Shown: positions 5,990 through 40,989 of the stretch, piece by piece
Numbering within the stretch: position 1 is the first letter of the stretch
How the letters are laid out: each line of letters opens with the position of its first letter
NCBI GenBank assembly: GCA_036253495.1
Contig: GCA_036253495.1_4125.1
Direction: 5' to 3' (one strand)
Source of the DNA: a phage
Length of the DNA: 64,000 nt
Notes under the pieces: model-generated
The model's input: only the letters and a program-made list of their open reading frames with translations
What the model was told of the DNA's origin: nothing
The model's database searches: none
Made by a program: the position numbers and the translations under genes

Positions 5990-7165
5990 TCAAAATGTAG
6001 GAAGTTTGAATTCTCTCATAACAGATGAACTGCTTGCAGATACATTATCTGGTGATTTCCCTGCGTAGTATAATTTATTATCAATGAACATATACAATGT
6101 TGCATCATTTCCTGCTACAAGTGATTCACTTTTCTTAAATTTAACACCACTAGGTAAAATTGCTTCAACAAATGAACCTGATTCTCTTGTAGTATTATTT
6201 GCCAATTGACCATTGTTATTATAACCAGTACTATAAATTTTACCTGAACTATAATATACGAGTCCACGAGTACTAGTGTTTTCTATTCGAATGAATTCAC
6301 TATCATCTGGAACTGTCGTTGATAGTACTGGGTTTAACTTATAAGCAGATGATACATTATTATTACCCAATTGACCATAACCTTGAAAGCCTAGTGTATA
6401 CATAGGACATGATTCTGGTGTACCTTTTGTTATAATACCAATATAATTCACACTACAAAAAATGTCTATTACTTCTGTAATAGGTGTACCCTTATATTGA
6501 ACCCAAGGGAATACATACGATTGTTGCTTACCATTTCCCAAAGTACCGGAAGTTGTTGTCCCAGTACGCCACATTGTATCATCAAGTTTAATAATCCAGT
6601 TAGCTGTCGTTATCGATGAACAGAATTTTTTAACATTATCCACTAAAAATGTAAATTGATTATAATATGATGCAGTGTTTATACCAAACTTAGCACCAGT
6701 ATTATCACCTAACAAATATAAACTATTATCTGTACCTAAAATCAAAGCATAATCATAACCCACGTATATATCTTTAATTCTTGAAATTCCAAATTGTGTA
6801 AAATAGCTTGTACATTCTGTGAATGTTGTTATATTATTGGTTGTATTATTACCTAGCCATTTATCTAAACCACTATAAAAGAATCTATCATCATTTGTGC
6901 GTATTAGACAAAAAGCGTTCATTGTACTGCACCAAAAATCTTTAACATTGCTATATATTTTTGTCCATTCAGTTACTGCATTAGTATGACCTAAACCAAA
7001 AATTCCACCATTCTGAAGACCAATAGCCCATATTGAACCATTTTTATCAAGCATCATTGTACATGTATGTGAATAACCACCCGATGGTGTAACTAATTTA
7101 ACAAAATTGGGAATATATGGTAAAACTTTATTTCCATAATCCAACATTCTAACAAAAGGTAACAT
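5990..7165 (-). CDS. RCC1-like repeat protein, MLPFVRM-anchor paralog
   Basis: N-term MLPFVRMLDYGN; motifs GFQGYGQLGNN, GYNNNGQLANN; SD AAGGAGG; track extension rejected. Confidence 0.7.
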   Translation of the reverse strand: MLPFVRMLDYGNKVLPYIPNFVKLVTPSGGYSHTCTMMLDKNGSIWAIGLQNGGIFGLGHTNAVTEWTKIYSNVKDFWCSTMNAFCLIRTNDDRFFYSGLDKWLGNNTTNNITTFTECTSYFTQFGISRIKDIYVGYDYALILGTDNSLYLLGDNTGAKFGINTASYYNQFTFLVDNVKKFCSSITTANWIIKLDDTMWRTGTTTSGTLGNGKQQSYVFPWVQYKGTPITEVIDIFCSVNYIGIITKGTPESCPMYTLGFQGYGQLGNNNVSSAYKLNPVLSTTVPDDSEFIRIENTSTRGLVYYSSGKIYSTGYNNNGQLANNTTRESGSFVEAILPSGVKFKKSESLVAGNDATLYMFIDNKLYYAGKSPDNVSASSSSVMREFKLPTF

Positions 7166-7195
7166 AATTCCTCCTTTATTCATTATACTATATTT

Positions 7196-7230
7196 AATCA
7201 AAAAAGAAATGCCAGCATCGAGTACTGGCA
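7196..7230 (-). terminator. rho-independent terminator between RCC1 paralogs
   Basis: minus-strand imperfect hairpin GCCAG..CTGGC + T-run. Confidence 0.55.
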
Positions 7231-7236
7231 TTATTG

Positions 7237-8424
7237 TTATAGTTGTCTTGGTGTATCAAGTACATATCTATTTGTACTAGGACCACCATCATCATACGTT
7301 CCGGTTGAATAGATATTTTTCATATCAGTTAGAAATGTACGATACGAACCTCTATATATTTTTATTTTATCATACATAGAATATGTTATTTGTGCTGGCA
7401 GTGGACATGCAGTAAATTTACCAATAGTAACATTAGAACCAACACCCAACGAACCAGCATAACTACTCGCATTTAAACCAGTTGCATATACACCAGTACT
7501 CGTAACTAGTATACTAGATTGTGTTGGGTATCCAGTATGGATTGAATACAAAGTTCCAGTTGGTAGAGTAGTACTATTATTTCCTAATACTGCTAGTGCT
7601 GTACTAGTCGTAGTGTTATTACCCCATGCACCATTACTAGCTAAACCACCCACAAGGAACTGTCGTGCTCCTGTACTTGGATTTTCAACTAAAGCACTGA
7701 CCGCACCACTTGAACAACCAGTATATTGTAATGTTTTTGTATATGTTGTACTTGGCTGATATAAAGTATATTCATTATAGGGAGTCCATGTAGTACTGGA
7801 ACTTATACCGGATGTACCACCACCAATATATAAATTATTTTGTGTATCAAAAAACATTACACAGTTATTTGTTGACTGTATTTGTGCAATATCAACATTA
7901 GGTGTGACAGCTTTTACAAATGATCCATCTGTTATTTGTTGAGTTTGTCCAGTACCATCAGCGAATTGTCTACCCCCACTCCAACCAGTACTCCATATTG
8001 TATTATTATCCATTAAGAAAGTAAACCACGTAGTACCTGCATACATCTGTTTAATTGAAGTACTTGAACTTTGTGTGTACAAATTTTCAATATATTGGTT
8101 ATAACTTAAAAATGATGTAGTACTAGTTTCTAAACCAATATGACTACCATATCCACAATAAAAATAATTTAAGTCATTATCTTGTACTAACAAAGTTCCT
8201 TGTGTCACCCAGCAATCTTTGACATTTTCTCTAATTAATGTCCATGATCTTAGTGCATTATTATTTCCTCTCCCAAATTTTCCAAAACTATTACTTCCTC
8301 GTGCGTATAGTTGACCATCAGTATAAAGTACAACAACATCAGTATCAGTTGGTATTATTTTCTTAATTTGAAGTGGAATAGGTACAATATTTCCATAATC
8401 AAACATTCTAACAAAAGGTAACAT
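7237..8424 (-). CDS. RCC1-like repeat protein, MLPFVRM-anchor paralog
   Basis: N-term MLPFVRMFDYGN; SD AAGGAGG; conserved upstream cassette. Confidence 0.7.
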   Translation of the reverse strand: MLPFVRMFDYGNIVPIPLQIKKIIPTDTDVVVLYTDGQLYARGSNSFGKFGRGNNNALRSWTLIRENVKDCWVTQGTLLVQDNDLNYFYCGYGSHIGLETSTTSFLSYNQYIENLYTQSSSTSIKQMYAGTTWFTFLMDNNTIWSTGWSGGRQFADGTGQTQQITDGSFVKAVTPNVDIAQIQSTNNCVMFFDTQNNLYIGGGTSGISSSTTWTPYNEYTLYQPSTTYTKTLQYTGCSSGAVSALVENPSTGARQFLVGGLASNGAWGNNTTTSTALAVLGNNSTTLPTGTLYSIHTGYPTQSSILVTSTGVYATGLNASSYAGSLGVGSNVTIGKFTACPLPAQITYSMYDKIKIYRGSYRTFLTDMKNIYSTGTYDDGGPSTNRYVLDTPRQL

Positions 8425-15954: not shown

Positions 15955-16134
15955 ATGCAAGAATTCTATATCTATAAACTCCAGAACAAAGATAGATACA
16001 TCTATAATCAATTCCAAAGGTACTACACAGTCGGGAACAAAAGAGATAAAAAACGATACCTGCTATCATGTACAGTAGAAGCACAAAACGAAAAGTACAC
16101 GTACAGAGAAGTACTGAAACTAATCTCTATATAA
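15955..16134 (+). CDS. small hypothetical protein, family A (59 aa, not in ORF track)
   Basis: MQEFYIYKLQNKDRY...YREVLKLISI; close paralog of 15767-15946. Confidence 0.6.
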   Translation: MQEFYIYKLQNKDRYIYNQFQRYYTVGNKRDKKRYLLSCTVEAQNEKYTYREVLKLISI

Positions 16135-16144
16135 GGAATAAACT

Positions 16145-16324
16145 ATGCTAGAGTACTACACCGATAATCTCAGTACTAAGGATCGTTTCATGTACGACAC
16201 CTTCGTGAAGTACTACAACCTGGGAACAAAAAGTACTAAAACTATTAATCTCAATAGCTGCATTCATCACGTCCTGACAAAAAATAACCCATACAGAGAA
16301 ATAATCTCGCTTGTAACAGTATAA
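16145..16324 (+). CDS. small hypothetical protein, family A (59 aa, not in ORF track)
   Basis: MLEYYTDNLSTKDRF...YREIISLVTV; overlapping antisense track ORF 16148-16429 rejected. Confidence 0.6.
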   Translation: MLEYYTDNLSTKDRFMYDTFVKYYNLGTKSTKTINLNSCIHHVLTKNNPYREIISLVTV

Positions 16325-16352
16325 GCAGTATAAGCAATTTAAGGAGACTAAA

Positions 16353-17024
16353 ATGAAACTCAATCCACAAAGCAAACGATACCTACAGCACTTCAAGTAC
16401 CTGCAATCAATCCAGGCTGAATCTACCACTAATGCATATACTTATCACCCTAATGTACTAAAGAACCTAAAGAAAAGTAAAAAAACCAGTACAAATGGAG
16501 TTAACGTATCAAAGAACCTTGAATTGTACATGAAGAAAAATAATATAGCTGTTCATTATATGAATATCTATAATACTGATTTAAAAGTATTGAGTACTAA
16601 TACGAGCATGAAGGTACTAAAGAACGCATCCTTCATCATCCATATGCAGTTGGATAATACCCCGTGCACTTTAATGCTATACTTCGGGAATACATACTTC
16701 TTCGGGAATTGTAACACCTCCCACGATGTCAATACAGCACAATTCCAAATGGGTGGCATATACAGTATGGGTTCAGAAGAAATACACGATAACATGCATT
16801 TCTTCCAACAGCAACGTACAGAAGAAACTAAATCAATTGTAGAATTCCTCAAAGAACTAGAACACAAAGAATTATCAGAAGAAGAACTATTCATGTACAG
16901 TACTGTAATCGATAATCCTGTACTGTACAAAAACGCGTACAATCTTACAAAACATGTACAGGAACTTATCAGTACTAATAAGAAAATTCATCACCTCATT
17001 ACATATATTACAAACTATGCATAA
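16353..17024 (+). CDS. hypothetical protein (223 aa) with family C-like EEELFMYSTVID motif
   Basis: SD AAGGAGA; embedded in family A array; C-terminal motif resembles family C core. Confidence 0.6.
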   Translation: MKLNPQSKRYLQHFKYLQSIQAESTTNAYTYHPNVLKNLKKSKKTSTNGVNVSKNLELYMKKNNIAVHYMNIYNTDLKVLSTNTSMKVLKNASFIIHMQLDNTPCTLMLYFGNTYFFGNCNTSHDVNTAQFQMGGIYSMGSEEIHDNMHFFQQQRTEETKSIVEFLKELEHKELSEEELFMYSTVIDNPVLYKNAYNLTKHVQELISTNKKIHHLITYITNYA

Positions 17025-17199
17025 AGAATACTACGTAAGTAAACTTACAATAGATCTCCAAAAACTTATTCCCCAAAAACCTGTAGATTTCAAAGATAAA
17101 AGCCAAACTATATTCTACCGATATCAAACAGAATCTGCAATAAATGAAGATGATATCTATAACTTGTACAATGTACTAACACTTATATACAGGTACTAA
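17017..17199 (+). CDS. small hypothetical protein, family A
   Basis: start MHKEYYVSKL overlaps upstream stop (ATGCATAA); C-term LTLIYRY; track extension rejected. Confidence 0.65.
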   Translation: MHKEYYVSKLTIDLQKLIPQKPVDFKDKSQTIFYRYQTESAINEDDIYNLYNVLTLIYRY

Positions 17200-17200
17200 T

Positions 17201-17389
17201 ATGCACAAAGAATACTACACAAAATATTTCCCAATGTACCTCATAACTAATCTATTAGATAAACCTCGCGGTATCAATGCACAAAACGATAAAAAGTACT
17301 TTACTATGTGCACTAAAGCATGTATACAAGATTATGATAGCTATCATCGAGCACTGTACCACACCCTGTACCTCGCATTCGTGTACTAA
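17201..17389 (+). CDS. small hypothetical protein, family A
   Basis: MHKEYYTKYFPM...LYLAFVY. Confidence 0.7.
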   Translation: MHKEYYTKYFPMYLITNLLDKPRGINAQNDKKYFTMCTKACIQDYDSYHRALYHTLYLAFVY

Positions 17390-17398
17390 GGAAATAAT

Positions 17399-17584
17399 AT
17401 GCATAAAGAATACTACATAAATAAACTCCCAATGCATCTACAATACCTTGTACCAACAAAACCATTGGGTATAGAAAAAGACTACGAAAAAGACTACTTC
17501 GTTAAGTGCACTAAATCCTCGATAGATATTGACGACTATAATCGAGTACTGTATCACATCCTTTTACTAATATATAAGTACTAA
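17399..17584 (+). CDS. small hypothetical protein, family A
   Basis: MHKEYYINKLPMHLQYLVPTKPLGI...LLLIYKY. Confidence 0.7.
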   Translation: MHKEYYINKLPMHLQYLVPTKPLGIEKDYEKDYFVKCTKSSIDIDDYNRVLYHILLLIYKY

Positions 17585-17585
17585 T

Positions 17586-17774
17586 ATGAACGACTATAAA
17601 GAATACTACCAAGATAAACTCCCAATGCATCTCCAACACCTTGTGCCAACAAAACCATTGGGCATAAAAGATCATGCAAAAATAATGTTCCAACAATGTA
17701 CTAAGTACACCCTAATATACGATGACAATCCATATATGCTGTACTACATAACAATGCTAATATTCAGGTACTAA
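17586..17774 (+). CDS. small hypothetical protein, family A
   Basis: MNDYKEYYQDKLPMHLQHLVPTKPLGI...MLIFRY. Confidence 0.7.
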   Translation: MNDYKEYYQDKLPMHLQHLVPTKPLGIKDHAKIMFQQCTKYTLIYDDNPYMLYYITMLIFRY

Positions 17775-17776
17775 TC

Positions 17777-17977
17777 ATGTATAAAGAATACTATATGAGT
17801 AAACTATCAAGCACCGAAAGAATCTGGTGCGAAGCCGCCGCCCCCGTTAATCCAAAAAGTGCATACGCAAAAATGGGCTTTAGGAAAGCTACAACGAACT
17901 CAATTGAAGCTCTAGAACAAGATGACACTAAAGCACTATACTCTAACCTAATGTTGCTAGTATATATCTATGGATAA
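17777..17977 (+). CDS. small hypothetical protein, family A
   Basis: MYKEYYMSKL...LLVYIYG. Confidence 0.65.
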   Translation: MYKEYYMSKLSSTERIWCEAAAPVNPKSAYAKMGFRKATTNSIEALEQDDTKALYSNLMLLVYIYG

Positions 17978-18161
17978 TTATAAAGAATACTATAAACAAT
18001 TTGTTAAAGAGAACTACAAAGATGCCGTCCCCGTAATCCCTTTAAATTCCCATGACCCAAGTTCTATATTCTTGTTTAAGGACGCAATACGTACAGTACT
18101 CAATACTAAAGATGAACAGGTGCAGTACGTATTCTTACTATTACTTATATACAGACACTAA
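17970..18161 (+). CDS. small hypothetical protein, family A
   Basis: MDNYKEYYKQF...LLLIYRH. Confidence 0.65.
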   Translation: MDNYKEYYKQFVKENYKDAVPVIPLNSHDPSSIFLFKDAIRTVLNTKDEQVQYVFLLLLIYRH

Positions 18162-18162
18162 T

Positions 18163-18360
18163 ATGAATGACCATAAAGAATTCTATATAAGTAAACTCAA
18201 AGAGAATGAACAAGTATGGATTAACGCTCTAATCCCTCTACCAATGACTCGATATGAATTTAATAAATGTACTAATATAGCAATAGACCCTTCTCCTGTT
18301 CTAGAGAATGTACAGTACAATCAGTACTACTATATCTTAATGCTTATATATAGGAAGTAA
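18163..18360 (+). CDS. small hypothetical protein, family A
   Basis: MNDHKEFYISKL...LMLIYRK; track N-terminal extension from 18052 rejected. Confidence 0.65.
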   Translation: MNDHKEFYISKLKENEQVWINALIPLPMTRYEFNKCTNIAIDPSPVLENVQYNQYYYILMLIYRK

Positions 18361-18990
18361 TTAAACACATATAGCTAGGGGAAGCTCCGTAGTGCAAGCA
18401 TTATACAGGCTTTAACATATGTTGCATATGTTAAAATTCAGCCTGGACAAATGCGATCACTAGGATTCTCCCCAGGCTAAACCCCGTAATCATAAGTAAT
18501 CATATATAAACATTTAAGTAATCATTTATAATCATTGTAGTGAACAGTATTGAGTACTAGAGTGCAGGAATGATTCAGAATGATTCAGTACTGATATCCC
18601 ACTAAGTAGGCAAATGAAGTCGCCCAAAATTTACATAATTTTACAGTACTGAACAATTGCAAAACAAATCATTTCCAATCAAAAGTAATCACGGAATGAC
18701 CAGTACTGAAAACTCCCAATCACCTATTCAAAAAAGTTCAATTTACCCTTTGTCAAAAATCCCGAATACCCATTGGGGAAAATTCCGAATACCCCTTGAG
18801 GCTCCAGCAAAAAGTTGGTTAGTACTCCATCGTAAATCTGGATCGTAAAAATTTTGGAGTACCTATGAAATAAAAGTTGGATCTTCGAAAGTTGAAATTT
18901 ACATTGGGACATATAGGATTAGTGGGATATAATGAGTTTTGAAGAGATACAGAGTATACGATTTCAGTACTGAATAATGGAAGAAATCTA

Positions 18991-19018
18991 TTGACATTAT
19001 GATTCAGTACTGTATAAT
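18991..19018 (+). promoter_or_regulatory. sigma70-like promoter with no downstream ORF
   Basis: TTGACA - 16 nt - TATAAT with AGTACTG spacer; T-run about 115 nt downstream. Confidence 0.5.
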
Positions 19019-19140
19019 GTTCTACATAGAGTGATGAATTGCCGCAAACAATTCAGAGCCTTAGCCCTCCTGTCGTGAGACAGTACAGAAGAGATTGAAT
19101 CCTCCTATGCAGTGGTTCATCTTTGACAACCTCTTTTTTC
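19019..19140 (+). ncRNA. candidate small non-coding transcript
   Basis: starts after promoter 18991-19018; no ORF or SD; internal hairpin CTGTC-gtga-GACAG; ends at CCTCTTTTTTCG. Confidence 0.25.
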
Positions 19141-19150
19141 GTAATATAAA

Positions 19151-19219
19151 CAGTACTGTTATTAACAGAATGGTAGCAGTACTGTTATTAACAGAATGGT
19201 AGCAGTACTGATATTAATC
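19151..19219. repeat. tandem direct repeat (26 bp x 2.6)
   Basis: CAGTACTGTTATTAACAGAATGGTAG x2 then CAGTACTGATATTAATC. Confidence 0.85.
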
Positions 19220-19372
19220 TAATATAATGTTACCATGCAATGTGGTGAATTTCCCTTAACAGTATTCAGTACTACATGATAGTCTTCATCCTCCTAGGGT
19301 AACATAGTGAGGGCTATGATGGCAGTACTGAATACTCCCTTCTTAAAGATAGATCTATGGTATAGTACTGAC

Positions 19373-19413
19373 GGATTTTGGGCGTAGTAACCCTGGGTGG
19401 ATTTTGGACGTAG
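19373..19413. repeat. direct repeat GGATTTTGG(G/A)CGTAG x2
   Basis: two copies 11 bp apart; related motif recurs at ~19745 and ~19950. Confidence 0.7.
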
Positions 19414-19444
19414 AGATGCCTAGCCCTCCAGAAGTCTGGAAGTA

Positions 19445-19592
19445 AAGATGGCTATCCCTCTAGACGGCTGGATGGCTGGATGGCTAGATTTCTAGATGGC
19501 TGTACTGCTAGACGTTTGGACGGCTAAACGGCTAGATGGTTAAACGTCTGGATGTATAGACGGTTAAATCAAAATTTTTATTTTGTTTTTTC
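19445..19592. repeat. iteron-like array plus AT-rich tract (candidate replication origin)
   Basis: about 10 degenerate copies of (T/G)(A/G)GA(T/C)GG(C/T)T in ~125 bp, followed by AAAATTTTTATTTTGTTTTTTCC. Confidence 0.4.
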
Positions 19593-19725
19593 CAATAGTT
19601 CCCCTACCGCGTGGGGATGGTTTCCCCGCAGTATCTGGAGTTAGATTTTTCTGAATCTGGAAACATTATCCCAGTTTTAGCGGGGTATGTCAACCGCCTG
19701 GATGAATATTTTTAAAAAATAATCT

Positions 19726-19808
19726 AGTACTGAATTTTGGGCGTAACTATGCACCCGGTGGGCTAGAGTCTTTCTCGACTTGATGAAATAATTATAGCAG
19801 TACTGAAT
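19726..19808. repeat. ~80-bp repeated intergenic element (copy 1)
   Basis: AGTACTGAATTTTGGGCGTA..GCACCCGGTGGGCTAGAG..TAATTATAGCAGTACTGAA; copies at 19944-20030 and 24041-24127. Confidence 0.6.
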
Positions 19809-19943
19809 TATAAAAGCAATAGCCTAAGTGTAAAAAGTTTTAATTAATTTGCTTGCCATCCTGGGGCGTACTATGGTACTATGATTCAGTACTGAGAAAG
19901 TACTTTGACCCGCTAGGGTGCGGGAGTGTATCCTTTTTAAATT

Positions 19944-20030
19944 TACTGAATTTTGGGCGTAGTTCCGCACCCCCTGGGGTATCCGCTTTCTCGCGTCTAT
20001 GTAGTAATTATACGCTTTTTTAGTACTGAG
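19944..20030. repeat. ~80-bp repeated intergenic element (copy 2)
   Basis: ACTGAATTTTGGGCGTAG..CACCCCCTGGGG..TAATTATACG..AGTACTGA. Confidence 0.55.
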
Positions 20031-23495: not shown

Positions 23496-23699
23496 ATGAG
23501 TGATTTAATTGAACGTATCAAAGAGCTTGAAGAAAAAGAATTGCAGCTAATCGGCTTACAGAATAAAATCTATCATGATTTGGGGAGTTTTATCAATGCC
23601 TGGGATAGTGGCGATCCTGATGCGTTACCTGCTAACCGCCAGGCGATGATCAATGATGTGCGTCGTGTCTTTGAGTATGTTTTTAAGCAATTAAATTAA
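23496..23699 (+). CDS. hypothetical early protein
   Basis: 67 aa from MSDLIERIKELEE; SD AAGGA; track start 23460 rejected. Confidence 0.55.
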   Translation: MSDLIERIKELEEKELQLIGLQNKIYHDLGSFINAWDSGDPDALPANRQAMINDVRRVFEYVFKQLN

Positions 23700-23706
23700 A
23701 AAGTAC

Positions 23707-23734
23707 TTGCAATTAGTTTTCAGTACTGTATAAT
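23707..23734 (+). promoter_or_regulatory. early promoter + 5' stem-loop
   Basis: TTGCAA ... cAGTACTG TATAAT; hairpin GGGGAGAA/TTCTCCC. Confidence 0.65.
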
Positions 23735-23784
23735 AGTTTACATCAAGGGGAGAAATGGTTCTCCCTGGTAATGAGGAAAATACA

Positions 23785-24566: not shown

Positions 24567-24866
24567 ATGAAAATTGCAATCATCGCCCTGGCTTTATCTG
24601 TTTCCTCTTTCGCTGTTAATGCGTCATTAGATGTACCTGGTGATAAATTCATTCAGTGCACAGTAGCAATGACAGATGAAAGTACTGGCGAGATTGTTTT
24701 AAAGGATCTGGAATTACAGCCAGAAGCATTTAAAAACGGGCCGTTCCATGAAGAAGACGAAAAAGGTAGCACAACAATTTATTATGATGCAATGAAAAAA
24801 CGTGGTTCTGTCACTGTTATGGATACTGAGAAAGTAACGCATACAGGCGTTATTAACTGCCTATAA
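24567..24866 (+). CDS. small secreted protein (signal peptide)
   Basis: MKIAIIALALSVSSFAVNA then mature part; terminator downstream. Confidence 0.65.
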   Translation: MKIAIIALALSVSSFAVNASLDVPGDKFIQCTVAMTDESTGEIVLKDLELQPEAFKNGPFHEEDEKGSTTIYYDAMKKRGSVTVMDTEKVTHTGVINCL

Positions 24867-24885
24867 TACATCAGTACTGAATCAC

Positions 24886-24915
24886 TAGCCCACTATAAGC
24901 AGTGGGCTTTTTTGT
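24886..24915 (+). terminator. rho-independent terminator
   Basis: AGCCCACT-ataagc-AGTGGGCT + TTTTTG. Confidence 0.75.
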
Positions 24916-24961
24916 AGTATCGTAGTACTGGAATACTTTGAAAATAGTTTTAAAAAAGTAG

Positions 24962-24990
24962 TTGACATTACCGCAAAAAGGCGTAGAATG
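24962..24990 (+). promoter_or_regulatory. promoter with long leader (H-NS-like gene)
   Basis: TTGACA-17-TAGAAT; ~120-nt leader before ATG 25113. Confidence 0.55.
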
Positions 24991-25112
24991 TATTACATCA
25001 AGACGGGGAACACTAAGTAGACCGCCAGTAAGTCGAACGAAAAACTGGACACGTCGAGAAAACTTTGATACACTAACTAACGTAAACTAAACTTTAATTG
25101 AGGAATTACATA

Positions 25113-25595
25113 ATGGCTAACGTAAAATCATTCATCAAAGCACTGGTAGCAAATGAAACTAACGTAGCGGCAGAAATCCTGGCCGAACTGGATAGCGATA
25201 CCATGAAAGCAGTACGCAACAATTTTAACATTGCGTACAGCGAAGCGAAAGAACTGCAAGCTAATAAAGCGGCAGCACTTGAAGCTGAGAAGGCAGCACG
25301 CGAAGCTGAATTGCAGAAAACGATTGAAGATATTAACGCCGCCGTCGCTGGGCTTGATCTGGAAGTAGTTACCGAAATGGCACGTAAAGCCCTGGCAGCG
25401 AAATACGGGGAAGACAAGCCAGAAGTAAAAGCTAAAAAATGGATTCAAGAACGTGTGACGGTTGTACTGGATAATGGCGAGGAATACACTGTACCAGTAC
25501 GCGGTAACTGCATTGCGGTAGTACTGGATGCTATCAAAGAAAGCGGATTGACTCGCGAGGAATGGATCGAATCTCATCGCAAAGTTGAAGCATAA
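25113..25595 (+). CDS. H-NS-like protein candidate (coiled-coil N-terminus, H-NS-like C-terminal domain)
   Basis: Ala/Glu/Lys-rich N-terminal half; C-terminus LDNGEEYTVPVRGNCIAVVLDAIKESGLTREEWI resembles H-NS [33 protein letters not shown]; long 5' leader; terminator. Confidence 0.45.
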   Translation: MANVKSFIKALVANETNVAAEILAELDSDTMKAVRNNFNIAYSEAKELQANKAAALEAEKAAREAELQKTIEDINAAVAGLDLEVVTEMARKALAAKYGEDKPEVKAKKWIQERVTVVLDNGEEYTVPVRGNCIAVVLDAIKESGLTREEWIESHRKVEA

Positions 25596-25615
25596 CAATT
25601 AAAGTACTGAATCAC

Positions 25616-25646
25616 TAGCCCACCTTAAACAGTGGGCTTTTTTTGT
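25616..25646 (+). terminator. rho-independent terminator
   Basis: AGCCCAC-cttaaac-AGTGGGCT + TTTTTTT. Confidence 0.75.
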
Positions 25647-26322: not shown

Positions 26323-26330
26323 AAAAGTAC

Positions 26331-26358
26331 TTGCAAAGTAAATCAAATAAAGTATAAT
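26331..26358 (+). promoter_or_regulatory. early promoter + 5' stem-loop
   Basis: TTGCAA-16-TATAAT; hairpin GGGGAGAA/TTCTCCCC. Confidence 0.65.
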
Positions 26359-26408
26359 ACATTACATCAAGGGGAGAAATGGTTCTCCCCACTAAGAGGA
26401 AACGAAAA

Positions 26409-26552
26409 ATGAAAACTTGTCAATGTGGTAAAAAATCTATTACTGGTTTAAAGCGGGGCGTTGCTCTTTGTCAGTATCACTATAATGCTCAAGTATGGGG
26501 TAAAGAGTGGGCCGACCGGGTTGAAGCATCAAAGAAAGCAAAAAGTAAGTAA
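26409..26552 (+). CDS. small Cys-rich protein (47 aa, not in ORF track)
   Basis: MKTCQCGKK...CQYHY; promoter + hairpin + SD AGAGGA upstream. Confidence 0.5.
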   Translation: MKTCQCGKKSITGLKRGVALCQYHYNAQVWGKEWADRVEASKKAKSK

Positions 26553-28554: not shown

Positions 28555-28701
28555 ATGAAAGCATCAAAAAAGAGTAATACTAAGAAAGCATGTTCACCTT
28601 TCGCTGGGGTATTCCCTTTACGTTTCGTTGATGAAGTGGTTTCCTACCCGCCGGGCCTTACTCCTGAGATGGTAGAAAGTTTGCGTAAATCTAAAAAATA
28701 G
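28555..28701 (+). CDS. small basic protein (48 aa, not in ORF track)
   Basis: MKASKKSNTKKACSPF...; promoter + hairpin + SD AAGGA upstream. Confidence 0.5.
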   Translation: MKASKKSNTKKACSPFAGVFPLRFVDEVVSYPPGLTPEMVESLRKSKK

Positions 28702-28704
28702 TAC

Positions 28705-28732
28705 TTGCAATTAGTTTTCAGTACTGTATAAT
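28705..28732 (+). promoter_or_regulatory. early promoter + 5' stem-loop
   Basis: TTGCAA-16-TATAAT; hairpin GGGGAAA/GGTTCTCCCC. Confidence 0.65.
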
Positions 28733-28782
28733 GTTTTACATAGAGGGGGGAAATGGTTCTCCCCGATACTAGGAGAATCAAA

Positions 28783-32285: not shown

Positions 32286-32431
32286 AAGAATACATTTTCG
32301 AAGTTACGTTTTTGGGTAAAGGTATGCATCAACTGATACGGTCCAGCGGATACAGTGTTAACCAGGCGTGGAATAACTTAAAACAAATGTACCCGAACGC
32401 TATCACATATCGCAACCCTCGCGAGGCATAA
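32282..32431 (+). CDS. small hypothetical protein (49 aa, not in ORF track)
   Basis: MKEYIFEVTFLGKGMHQLIRSSGYS...; ATGA overlap with upstream ORF. Confidence 0.45.
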   Translation: MKEYIFEVTFLGKGMHQLIRSSGYSVNQAWNNLKQMYPNAITYRNPREA

Positions 32432-32446
32432 AATAAATTGAAAAAA

Positions 32447-32479
32447 GGGATTGACTCCGGTCAGTCCCTTTGCTATTAT
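32447..32479 (+). promoter_or_regulatory. composite terminator-hairpin/promoter element (copy 2)
   Basis: AAAAAAGGGATTGACTCCGGTCAGTCCCTTTGCTATTAT. Confidence 0.55.
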
Positions 32480-32578
32480 ATACGCATAGAAACAAATTAG
32501 CCCACCGGGTGCATAAATGTATCTATTGTTTGCTGGTGGAGGTATTATCTAGTACTGAAAACTATTTTTAAAAAGTAC

Positions 32579-35151: not shown

Positions 35152-35736
35152 ATGCGTAATTATACTAAATTCATCCGGGCACTGGCAGAAATGGAAACTA
35201 ACAAAGAGATCCTTACAGCTTGTCGGTTGGCTGGTCTGGAGATCATCGGGGCCGGATCATCCCGTATCGTATTCGCTTTAAATGATCGGTTAGTGATTAA
35301 GGTCGCTAATTGTGACGCTGGCGTAGAACAAAATGAAACAGAATGTAAGGTATGGAATTTTTTAGATTATGACCGCCCTCACCTTAAACAGTACTTTGCT
35401 AAGGTGCATATGCATTTAAGCGATCCTGATAATATGTTTATTGTTATGGATCGTTTGAGTACTGCAAGCAAAGGCAGTGTAAAGCACGTTAACGCTTGCA
35501 ATGAATTAAAGTACAATGTCAAACGTAACACTATTGAACGCCAACACCATTTCGCTGATGCACTACAACACGTTGATGATACCTTATCAACACTAACGAT
35601 AAGAGATATCAGAAAGCAGAACATAGGCCAAGATCGCAATGGCCTGATTAAAGTACTTGATTACGGTTTAACCCGCAATATCTGGAATCAGTACTATAAA
35701 CAACGCGACGTAAAAGCCGTAACTATAACACGATAA
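35152..35736 (+). CDS. protein kinase-like protein (candidate small Ser/Thr or atypical kinase)
   Basis: 194 aa; Gly-loop IIGAGSSRIVF, Lys motif LVIKV, catalytic-loop-like IRDIRKQNIG, DFG-like VLDYG. Confidence 0.5.
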   Translation: MRNYTKFIRALAEMETNKEILTACRLAGLEIIGAGSSRIVFALNDRLVIKVANCDAGVEQNETECKVWNFLDYDRPHLKQYFAKVHMHLSDPDNMFIVMDRLSTASKGSVKHVNACNELKYNVKRNTIERQHHFADALQHVDDTLSTLTIRDIRKQNIGQDRNGLIKVLDYGLTRNIWNQYYKQRDVKAVTITR

Positions 35737-35750
35737 AAAAGATTAAAAAA

Positions 35751-35783
35751 GGGATTGACTCCAGTCAGTCCCTTTGCTATTAT
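35751..35783 (+). promoter_or_regulatory. composite terminator-hairpin/promoter element (copy 3)
   Basis: AAAAAAGGGATTGACTCCAGTCAGTCCCTTTGCTATTAT. Confidence 0.55.
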
Positions 35784-35878
35784 ATAGTCATTGAGAGATA
35801 ACTCACTGACCCATAGGGTGCATAAGTGTATCTATAATATAAGTATTGTCAGTACTGAAAACTATTTTAAAAAAGTAC

Positions 35879-36263: not shown

Positions 36264-36671
36264 ATGACTACTACTAATCAAGCTCGGTCCATCGCCAACG
36301 ATAAAAATCATGCTGCAATGGTCGCTGGTTACATTGAAGCTATGCAATTCAGTACTGTACACAATGAGAACGGCGAATACCTGGAAGATTATGAATTATC
36401 AGAGCAAGCCCATCAAGCGGCAGTGATTGCATGTTCACGTTTCCTTGCTGTACATGGTGAAGATATGGAAACAGTACAAAAACACCATAATCCTGATTAT
36501 ACTTATAATCATGCAGGTCATGATCTCTTTCTTACTCGCGAAGGTCACGGTACTGGCTTTTGGGATCGTGATATCGGTCACTATGACGATGTATTCACTA
36601 AGTACTGCGAAGAAATCAACGTTTGCGATCCCTATGTAGGCGATGATAATCTAATCTATATGGGCGAATAA
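36264..36671 (+). CDS. hypothetical protein with His/Asp-rich motif
   Basis: 135 aa; HAGHDLFLTREGHGTGFWDRDIGHYDD suggests metal-binding/hydrolase-like site (speculative). Confidence 0.65.
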   Translation: MTTTNQARSIANDKNHAAMVAGYIEAMQFSTVHNENGEYLEDYELSEQAHQAAVIACSRFLAVHGEDMETVQKHHNPDYTYNHAGHDLFLTREGHGTGFWDRDIGHYDDVFTKYCEEINVCDPYVGDDNLIYMGE

Positions 36672-36677
36672 AAGTAC

Positions 36678-36705
36678 TTGACAAAGTATATCAGTACTGT
36701 ATAAT
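36678..36705 (+). promoter_or_regulatory. early promoter + 5' stem-loop
   Basis: TTGACA-16-TATAAT; hairpin GGGGAGAA/TTCTCCCC. Confidence 0.65.
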
Positions 36706-36758
36706 AGTTTACATCAAGGGGAGAATAGTTCTCCCCACCAATAAAAGGAAACAACATT

Positions 36759-38810: not shown

Positions 38811-38828
38811 CAAAAAAGAATAAAAAAA

Positions 38829-38861
38829 GGGATTGACTCCGGTCAGTCCCTTTGCTATTAT
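38829..38861 (+). promoter_or_regulatory. composite terminator-hairpin/promoter element (copy 4)
   Basis: AAAAAAAGGGATTGACTCCGGTCAGTCCCTTTGCTATTAT. Confidence 0.55.
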
Positions 38862-38974
38862 ATACGCATAGACAAAAACTAGCCCACAGGGTGCATAGGT
38901 GTATCTAAAATATATAGTTAATAACGGTGAGTAACTATCTGCTGGTGGAGTGAAAACTATTAATAAAAAACTAT

Positions 38975-40397: not shown

Positions 40398-40595
40398 ATG
40401 CGTATTTTAACACAAGAAGAGCATCACGAAAGACTTATCAATAACATGGCTATGATAATGTATAAGTCTCATAAACGTGGTAATGCCTATAAACGTGAAT
40501 TAGTTATGGAACTATTCTTAGGAACTAACTTACAAAATGAATATGTTAAACTATATGTAAAAGAGTTATGTTTAGAGATAAATGGTAAACTATGA
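40398..40595 (+). CDS. small protein, family B (LGTNYQ-motif)
   Basis: first array member; promoter TTGACT/TATTAT and SD AAGGGAG upstream; FLGTNLQNEYV. Confidence 0.65.
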   Translation: MRILTQEEHHERLINNMAMIMYKSHKRGNAYKRELVMELFLGTNLQNEYVKLYVKELCLEINGKL

Positions 40596-40792
40596 AAATG
40601 CGTACATTAACTCAAGATGAATATCATCATATACTACGTAAAAACACGGCAAGAATTTACCAAAGCAATGTGCACTTAGAAAGAGTTGAGTTGTACCTGT
40701 TGATTACGATGGGAACAAACTATCAGGAAGTGTGGATAACTCACTATTTGGAATCTTTGAAAGCTGACATACGAGCTAGGAGAAAACTATGA
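40592..40792 (+). CDS. small protein, family B
   Basis: MKMRTLTQDEY...MGTNYQEVWI; ATGA overlap. Confidence 0.65.
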   Translation: MKMRTLTQDEYHHILRKNTARIYQSNVHLERVELYLLITMGTNYQEVWITHYLESLKADIRARRKL

Positions 40793-40989
40793 AAATGCGT
40801 ACATTAACCGAAAAAGAATATCAAGCTCTACTACGTAAAAACATGGTAAGGATTTACCAAAGCGATGTGCACTTAGAAAGAGTTGAGTTGTACCTTTTGA
40901 TTACAATGGGAACCAACTATCAGGAAGCATTGATATCGAAATATTTGGAATCTTTGAAAGCTGACATACGAGCGAGGTGCAAACATTGA
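40789..40989 (+). CDS. small protein, family B
   Basis: MKMRTLTEKEY...MGTNYQEALI; near-duplicate of previous. Confidence 0.65.
   Translation: MKMRTLTEKEYQALLRKNMVRIYQSDVHLERVELYLLITMGTNYQEALISKYLESLKADIRARCKH

Follow-up and report, generated by a model that had tools for sequence, protein, structure and literature searches.

Identification of a probable, divergent H-NS-superfamily gene

We analysed a 64,000-nucleotide stretch of phage DNA (contig GCA_036253495.1_4125.1 of assembly GCA_036253495.1; hereafter the window) and found that the gene at 25113-25595 on the + strand encodes a 160-residue, highly divergent protein whose homology to the H-NS superfamily is very probable. We hold it an even call that this product is an immediate-early phage protein that would modulate the silencing of the AT-rich phage genome. 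By sequence similarity the window is assigned to a Rak2-like jumbo coliphage (myovirus, Asteriusvirus): the 2-kb stretch around the gene shares 95% identity with Escherichia phage A4 and 85-91% with G17, Sharanji, 121Q, PBECO4 and other Asteriusvirus genomes (~350 kb). The GC content of the window is 32-39%; that of E. coli is ~51%, well above it.

The open reading frame (ORF) runs from an ATG at 25113 to a TAA ending at 25595 and falls in PHROG 27871, a family of unknown function. Its coordinates and length had been given correctly in an initial annotation of this DNA, and the C-terminal sequence quoted there was exact. Between orthologs, differences at codon positions 1, 2 and 3 numbered 11, 11 and 55 in one comparison and 21, 18 and 77 in another (examples from four orthologs), and this third-position excess (55/77 and 77/116) indicated a real gene under purifying selection. 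The product is rich in Ala (18%), Glu (14%) and Lys (9%), and in the AlphaFold2 model residues 28-79 form one long helix, in agreement with the earlier description of an Ala/Glu/Lys-rich, coiled-coil-like N-terminal half. Among other frames, a TTG ORF at 24962-25090 was rejected because it begins within the -35 element of the promoter, and two antisense ORFs, one at 25106-25417 and the other at 25128-25598, most probably just shadow the Ala/Glu-rich frame.

The homology was detected by comparing profiles. The family alignment (A2) holds 24 sequences and came from an exhaustive representative search, which in 1.84 billion proteins found only 22 clusters at E ≤ 0.001. The H-NS/StpA profile (A6) is shallow, with StpA as its sole divergent member, because the H-NS search and genome-contig scan gave only relatives at least 81% identical. 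With hhalign, A2 matched a single H-NS sequence (84%, E 7e-6) and matched A6 with a probability of 93.2% (E 2.9e-7, score 47.5) over 97 columns covering H-NS residues 38-135. The scores of 200 column-shuffled H-NS profiles averaged 11.6 (sd 2.5) and reached at most 25.9, and the reversed profile scored 18.2. Both halves of the protein contributed: the C-terminal part alone scored 25.5, above every shuffle (9.0 ± 2.2), and the family N-terminal profile scored 24.4 against H-NS 1-83 (100 shuffles, 9.6 ± 1.8, maximum 19.3), mapping to H-NS 39-77. An alignment restricted to Asteriusvirus scored 29.2 (shuffles 12.6 ± 2.6, maximum 20.6). A subgroup alignment was collinear with H-NS over 118 columns, query residues 26-157 corresponding to H-NS 21-138. 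An alignment to the H-NS DNA-binding domain that had previously been made by eye was recovered by hhalign in the same register, far above the shuffled controls.

A relative closer to H-NS gave further support. Muenster gp011, a Klebsiella phage protein with 35% identity and the same genomic position, passes the Pfam model Histone_HNS_N (PF22470) with 25.5 bits against a gathering cutoff of 24.5 (E 1.3e-5); 4 of the 24 family members match this model. Its depositors labelled it 'putative DNA-binding protein' and reported an HHpred match of 97.2% to NP_417155.1, an accession that we checked and that is StpA. Together with collinear profiles over both domains and the fold matches to MvaT and Ler described below, these results uphold the initial designation of the protein as H-NS-like.

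Several searches weigh against this kinship. In HMMER searches of Pfam, NCBIfam and PDB sequences, with the single sequence as well as with the profile, the window protein retrieved no H-NS model, and PF22470 itself did not match it. The C-terminal model, PF00816, was absent from the listed matches of all 24 family members at E ≤ 10, and NCBIfam NF008193 was matched by one of the 24, at E 0.028 and short of its curated threshold. A tblastn search of phages with H-NS did not reach the gene; a profile search of 5.8 billion proteins, in which the family closed at 38 clusters, gave no bridging sequences with a Pfam H-NS annotation. When the Asteriusvirus N-terminus was taken alone, its score (15.2) did not differ significantly from the shuffles (10.5 ± 2.1), and a Foldseek search of the PDB with the full-length model returned nothing below E = 1.

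A protein that reaches no curated model threshold might have no kinship with H-NS, and might instead combine a coiled coil with a small beta-beta-alpha-alpha domain whose likeness to H-NS is convergent or compositional and whose partner is another protein or RNA. Charged helices can inflate profile scores, and weak competing matches were seen to Tox-PL-2 (E 0.001), DUF3846 (E 0.035) and Csx15 (9teu_A, E 0.16), all of them below thresholds and rejected. However, the alignment to H-NS is collinear through both domains and the linker, and Cys133, the sole residue hinting at a papain-like toxin, is not conserved, so that such a toxin was rejected. We consider an origin outside the H-NS superfamily very unlikely.

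Predicted fold and DNA-contact loop

In the AlphaFold2 model (pLDDT 74.6 for the full chain) the product has the layout of H-NS, with a short, a second short, a long and a further helix, followed by a disordered linker and then by a C-terminal domain of the order beta-beta-alpha-alpha. The N-terminal helical domain (residues 1-98; 25113-25406) is predicted to contain helices at 4-12, 16-24, 28-79 and 83-98, and its turn G80-L81-D82 aligns to G68-I69-D70 of H-NS. The helix order in H-NS (PDB 3NR7, 2L93) matches this predicted order. The flexible linker (residues 99-113, GEDKPEVKAKKWIQE; 25407-25451) has pLDDT below 50 at residues 99-107 and aligns to the linker of H-NS. The C-terminal domain (residues 114-155; 25452-25577) is modelled with strands at 114-118 and 124-128 and helices at 135-144 and 148-154, that is, with the beta-hairpin, loop, helix and short helix of the H-NS/MvaT-type DNA-binding fold. 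In a fold search MvaT was the top match and Ler the fifth, and the C-terminal domain model is most similar to the DNA-binding domains of these two proteins. For the check that had been proposed for the gene, a profile or Foldseek match to H-NS-type families, the profile comparison stood above its shuffles and the fold search placed MvaT first, whereas Foldseek with the full model came back empty.

At the loop between the second strand and the first helix, the aligned segment reads TVPVRGNCI, and the predicted minor-groove residues R130-G131-N132 (codons at 25500-25508, + strand) align by hhalign to Q112-G113-R114 of H-NS, which places an invariant Asn where H-NS has Arg114. G131 and N132 are invariant in the 24 family members and are the only invariant residues besides Met1, in a family whose identity falls to ~25-35%; R114, G122, G145, R148 and I152 are nearly invariant.

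A Gly-Asn pair at this place has been studied in MvaT, which is without the Q/RGR motif; there the pair, Gly99-Asn100 in loop 2, is what enters the minor groove (PMC4466236; Ding et al. 2015). Asn100 superposes on H-NS Arg114 with a near-identical side-chain conformation, as 'half of the AT-hook', and the N100A mutation weakens binding more than 3-fold and abolishes repression (PMC4466236). These data make Gly-Asn a known working solution on the H-NS/MvaT fold, and the phage protein carries it at the MvaT-equivalent loop position, by sequence as well as by place. The invariance of G131-N132 points to selection on the loop, presumably for contact with DNA. The initial annotation had taken RGNCI for a degenerate QGRTP with abnormal DNA binding, a view that this invariance and the MvaT equivalence do not support. 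Being H-NS-like by sequence, with a loop of H-NS length and a Gly-Asn of the MvaT type, the C-terminal domain appears to be a hybrid.

Other features make DNA binding less secure. The canonical TWTGQGRTP motif is absent, and the linker plus C-terminal domain (residues 104-160) has a net charge of -2 and a pI of 5.3, whereas the charge is +5 in H-NS and +6 in both StpA and MvaT; among family members it ranges from -3 to +3. Judged from these charges, the basic surface with which H-NS, StpA and MvaT bind DNA is missing. The near-invariant R114 begins strand 1 and, in Asteriusvirus, R130 adjoins the Gly-Asn, while a lysine network is absent from the acidic domain. With such an acidic linker and C-terminal domain, a weak DNA binder or a decoy stays plausible.

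One form of decoy would be a dominant-negative antagonist, the second option of the initial annotation. It would co-oligomerise with host H-NS or StpA by way of its H-NS-like N-terminal helices, and its acidic C-terminal domain would bind DNA weakly if at all, so that the mixed filaments are capped or weakened and silencing is relieved. It would resemble H-NST, though with a decoy C-terminal domain. The charge deficit relative to the DNA-binding proteins and the loss of Arg114 and of the TWTGQGRTP signature fit this idea, as does the position of the best N-terminal similarity, H-NS 39-77, which includes the G-[IL]-D turn found at dimerisation site 2. There are also precedents, as H-NST forms heterodimers with H-NS and site 2 is the target of T7 gp5.5 (PMC8501957). 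However, a loop that had lost DNA contact should drift, and G131-N132 is instead invariant, with an Asn that in MvaT is a proven minor-groove contact. Furthermore, the phage proteins from E. coli and Klebsiella have drifted far apart in their N-terminal halves (35% identity over the whole protein). The H-NS proteins of E. coli and Klebsiella are nearly identical, so this divergence argues against tight co-adaptation to the host protein. On balance we consider a dominant-negative role unlikely.

Transcription unit and early cassette block

Sequence signals mark the gene as a separate transcription unit, which has a sigma-70 promoter close to consensus, a ~117-nt leader and a terminator to itself. 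An A-rich upstream stretch and the promoter occupy 24947-24989 on the + strand, with TTGACA at 24962-24967, a 16-nt spacer and TAGAAT at 24984-24989; in a promoter scan 11 of 12 positions matched the consensus. The 5' leader lies within 24990-25112, transcription presumably starting near 24996, ~7 nt past the -10 element, and the Shine-Dalgarno sequence, GAGG (25100-25103, + strand), is found 9 nt upstream of the ATG. A promoter with these two hexamers and a leader of ~120 nt had been proposed for the gene before, as had flanking terminators, and both proposals held.

Part of the leader is conserved to an unusual degree. Its first block (24990-25057, 68 nt), single-copy in the window, is 94-99% identical in phages G17, JNE01 and 121Q, and in the adjoining ORF 30-48% of third codon positions differ in the comparison genomes. 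No stable RNA fold was found in the leader (z +0.47 and -0.96), and no Rfam family matched it.

The two intrinsic terminators on the + strand are copies of one direct repeat. The upstream copy (24873-24913) has a stem at 24887-24908 and the downstream copy (25603-25644) a stem at 25617-25638, each followed by a T-run. These near-identical elements of ~42 nt (AGTACTGAATCACTAGCCCAC..CAGTGGGCTTTTTT) lie 730 bp apart and have no other copies in the window; likewise, the 20-mer GTACTGAATCACTAGCCCAC occurs in the window at 24874 and 25604 only. The bracketing of the gene unit by the window's only two copies would make it a self-contained, moron-like module, and the pair suggests either such a module or a local duplication.

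Stereotyped + strand cassettes, at least 24 in number, form a block at ~18980-39460 (~19 to 39.5 kb) to which the gene belongs. In order, a cassette holds an A-tract, a -35 element (AAAAAGTACTTGCA/TTGCA/TTGACA), a spacer of ~17 nt, GTATAAT, 5 nt and TACATCAAG; then come a GC-rich perfect hairpin, placed right at the transcript's 5' end (for example GGGGAGAAatggTTCTCCCC), and, ~10 nt on, a ribosome-binding site followed by a small ORF. There are 14 exact copies of the 9-mer TACATCAAG, and example cassettes from the repeat analysis lie at 23699-23765, 26323-26389, 28697-28763 and 36670-36736 (+ strand). The promoter of the H-NS-like gene belongs to the same repeat family (D4, early promoter cassette) at 69% identity to the reference copy, and its cassette is a variant with a perfect -35 element, without the perfect 5' hairpin and with a leader ~70 nt longer than usual. 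From its sequence, the conserved hairpin looks like an mRNA-stabilising or regulatory element common to the whole early regulon.

Transcription by host sigma-70 RNA polymerase immediately after infection is predicted from this arrangement and by analogy. The related phage PA5oct expresses its terminal-repeat genes early and depends on host RNA polymerase (PMC7318152), and in phage CBB RpoD-like promoters mark an early region of small genes (PMC5259590). The sigma-70 promoter, the block of at least 24 cassettes, the location in a direct terminal repeat described below and the PA5oct analogy (PMC7318152) all favour the earlier designation of the gene as early, which is our inference too.

A second repeat was observed as well. 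It starts with AAAAAAGGGATTGACTCCGGTCAGTCCCTTTGCTATTATATA, which is promoter-like and has an internal palindrome, and continues with TAGCCCACCGGGTGCATAAATGTATCTA (families D13, D15 and D20). Three long copies lie on the + strand at 32430-32525, 35734-35829 and 38812-38907, accompanied by about six short + strand copies, including those at 19907, 21799 and 29221, and by related copies on the opposite strand at 19742, 19958 and 24062.

The protein might instead be a phage-autonomous regulator that coats DNA independently of host H-NS, and would then organise or protect the 350-kb genome, silence strong early promoters in an early-to-middle switch, or compact the host nucleoid during shut-off. 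The product shows the complete two-domain build of a DNA coater that oligomerises with itself, the near-identical AT-rich promoter cassettes, at least 24 in number, could be its common targets, and T4 MotB, an early non-specific DNA binder, is a precedent (PMC8501957). Moreover, the gene is among the few of the early block that are kept across distant Rak2-like genera, and it lies at or near the left end in both genomes inspected for this, as g001 of fHe-Yen9-04 and as CPT_Munch_006. However, a strong general DNA coater would hardly be expected to have so acidic a C-terminal domain, and the gene's own leader block, at ~50% GC, is unlike an AT-rich operator. Sequence does not separate self-regulation from counter-silencing. 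We regard such a phage-autonomous regulator as improbable, and continue with modulation of host silencing as the preferred reading.

Genomic position and relatives

A tblastn search located orthologs in 71 phage records, which span several genera of the Rak2-like group. The ortholog of phage vB_Ec-M-J, EcMJ_013, occupies 6853-7335 within an annotated direct terminal repeat of 21,525 bp, and that of Klebsiella phage Muenster lies inside a 20-kb terminal repeat. The relative in Yersinia phage fHe-Yen9-04 is g001, the first annotated gene, and that in Salmonella phage Munch is CPT_Munch_006, at or near the left genome end. In the Rak2-like jumbo phages examined, the gene is thus kept near the left end and, where a long direct terminal repeat is annotated, within it. 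The terminal repeat that carries the gene is present at both genome ends.

The Asteriusvirus orthologs among the matches listed are all called 'hypothetical protein' or come from unannotated records, and a profile scan of viral contigs with alignment A1 had phage 121Q as its sole match. The neighbouring small ORFs all belong to PHROG families of unknown function or are without a PHROG match, and none has a Pfam match.

Some further observations concern the surroundings. The GC skew turns from negative to positive at ~16000-20000, and by synteny with vB_Ec-M-J, where the ortholog lies 6.85 kb from the left end, the left physical end, together with the beginning of the direct terminal repeat, would fall at about 18.3 kb. 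A genome-end junction probably lies within the window. The upstream neighbour (24567-24866, + strand, 99 residues; PHROG 31669, unknown function) has the N-terminus MKIAIIALALSVSSFAVNA, which resembles a cleavable signal peptide, so that it may be an exported early protein. At 26379-26552 (+ strand) an early ORF of 57 residues has a pattern, CxC...CxxH (CQCGKKSITGLKRGVALCQYH), suggestive of a small zinc-binding protein, and it has no match in Pfam or PHROG. A 197-nt unit is duplicated in tandem at 40587-40980, its copies being 87% identical (repeat family D12).

Discussion

In the mechanism that we propose, host RNA polymerase would transcribe the gene directly after DNA entry, and the protein would self-associate through its N-terminal helices, possibly also with host H-NS or StpA. 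The best-conserved N-terminal part would be the counterpart of H-NS dimerisation site 2, and the Gly-Asn loop would contact the minor groove. The job of the protein would be to modulate, and most plausibly to counteract, the silencing of the AT-rich phage DNA by H-NS and StpA, through competition for, or co-assembly into, nucleoprotein filaments on the incoming genome. DNA binding, oligomerisation and counter-silencing are all steps that we infer, and this tempers the proposal. Other phages also target H-NS-type silencers, as T7 gp5.5, T4 Arn, T4 MotB and LUZ24 Mip do (PMC8501957).

Compared with H-NS and StpA (PF22470 plus PF00816), the phage protein shares the domain order, the helix pattern, the disordered linker and the beta-beta-alpha-alpha C-terminal domain. 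It also shares with H-NS the length of the minor-groove loop, the G-[IL]-D turn of site 2, the pattern G..A..E.G and the acidic-aromatic C-terminal positions. It differs in its identity of only ~22-26%, at which BLAST and HMMER fail to detect the relationship, and in being encoded by a virulent jumbo phage. The phage family has (Y)xVPxxGNxx in place of TWTGQGRTP, with the invariant Asn for Arg114; the protein has a 4-residue insertion (ERVT) that makes its first strand longer, and its linker and C-terminal domain are acidic and not strongly basic. The family thus lacks the defining H-NS motif and falls short of the curated thresholds of PF00816 and NF008193.

The likeness to MvaT and MvaU (PDB 2MXE/2MXF) lies in a Gly-Asn pair at the loop tip, between strand 2 and helix 1; in MvaT the pair forms one half of an 'AT-pincer' and is required for function. 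In other respects the phage domain is unlike MvaT. By hhalign, its alignment (A4) matched the 2MXE sequence at E 0.27 over 8 misaligned columns, which is no similarity. The loop of the phage protein has the length of that of H-NS, whereas the loop in MvaT has two residues fewer than the H-NS loop (PMC4466236). The lysine network is absent, and the Arg of Asteriusvirus is contiguous with the pair (RGN), whereas Arg80 of MvaT comes from a second loop.

Silencer homologs on mobile elements are already known, among them plasmid Sfh/Acr2/Pmr and the H-NS of phage EPV1, which are presumed to interface with host silencing (PMC7074111, PMC3097231). Ler illustrates how anti-silencing can come from a C-terminal domain of the H-NS type whose loop is altered to VGR (PMC4466236). 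Unlike the phage family, Sfh/Acr2/Pmr, EPV1 H-NS, H-NST and Ler are readily recognised as members of the H-NS family, and there is no report of any of them in Rak2-like jumbo phages or in a terminal repeat. H-NST is without a C-terminal domain, whereas the phage protein has a complete and conserved one. The resemblance to T7 gp5.5, T4 Arn, T4 MotB and LUZ24 Mip (gp4), early proteins directed at H-NS-type silencers, is one of functional analogy only, as these bind H-NS or MvaT or mimic DNA and none is reported to be an H-NS homolog (PMC8501957).

Klebsiella phage Muenster gp011 and K64-1 gp430, both annotated 'putative DNA-binding protein', are orthologs with 33-35% identity over the full length and the same position among small early genes, the Muenster copy lying in the terminal repeat. 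Their loop reads TKGNKG and is followed by an insertion, and their N-terminal domain is nearer to H-NS and passes Pfam. The label 'putative DNA-binding protein' on the Klebsiella-phage ortholog is part of what was known, and in the literature searched we found no link between Rak2-like phages and H-NS or StpA.

A more specific picture, which we put forward tentatively and hold to be on the doubtful side, is that of a private Rak2-like H-NS clade whose members, with their hybrid loop and acidic domain, co-assemble with host H-NS or StpA on the AT-rich genome as it enters and make the filaments non-silencing. If true, counter-silencing by such a 'poisoned subunit' would be distinct from the binders of T7, T4 and LUZ24 and from DNA mimics.

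H-NS-type silencers are the main host barrier to the expression of AT-rich foreign DNA, and here a lineage of virulent 350-kb phages keeps a strongly diverged silencer copy at a site that is likely to be expressed first. Our results provide a testable annotation for a gene left 'hypothetical' in the coliphage genomes examined, some of which come from studies of drug-resistant or pathogenic E. coli. The family may also be of use, as a natural experiment, for learning how DNA is read by the H-NS fold, as it combines a loop of H-NS length, a Gly-Asn supposed to be exclusive to MvaT and an acidic domain. If the protein binds DNA, the Gly-Asn 'half AT-hook' would reach beyond Pseudomonas; if it does not, the family would represent a new kind of full-length decoy.

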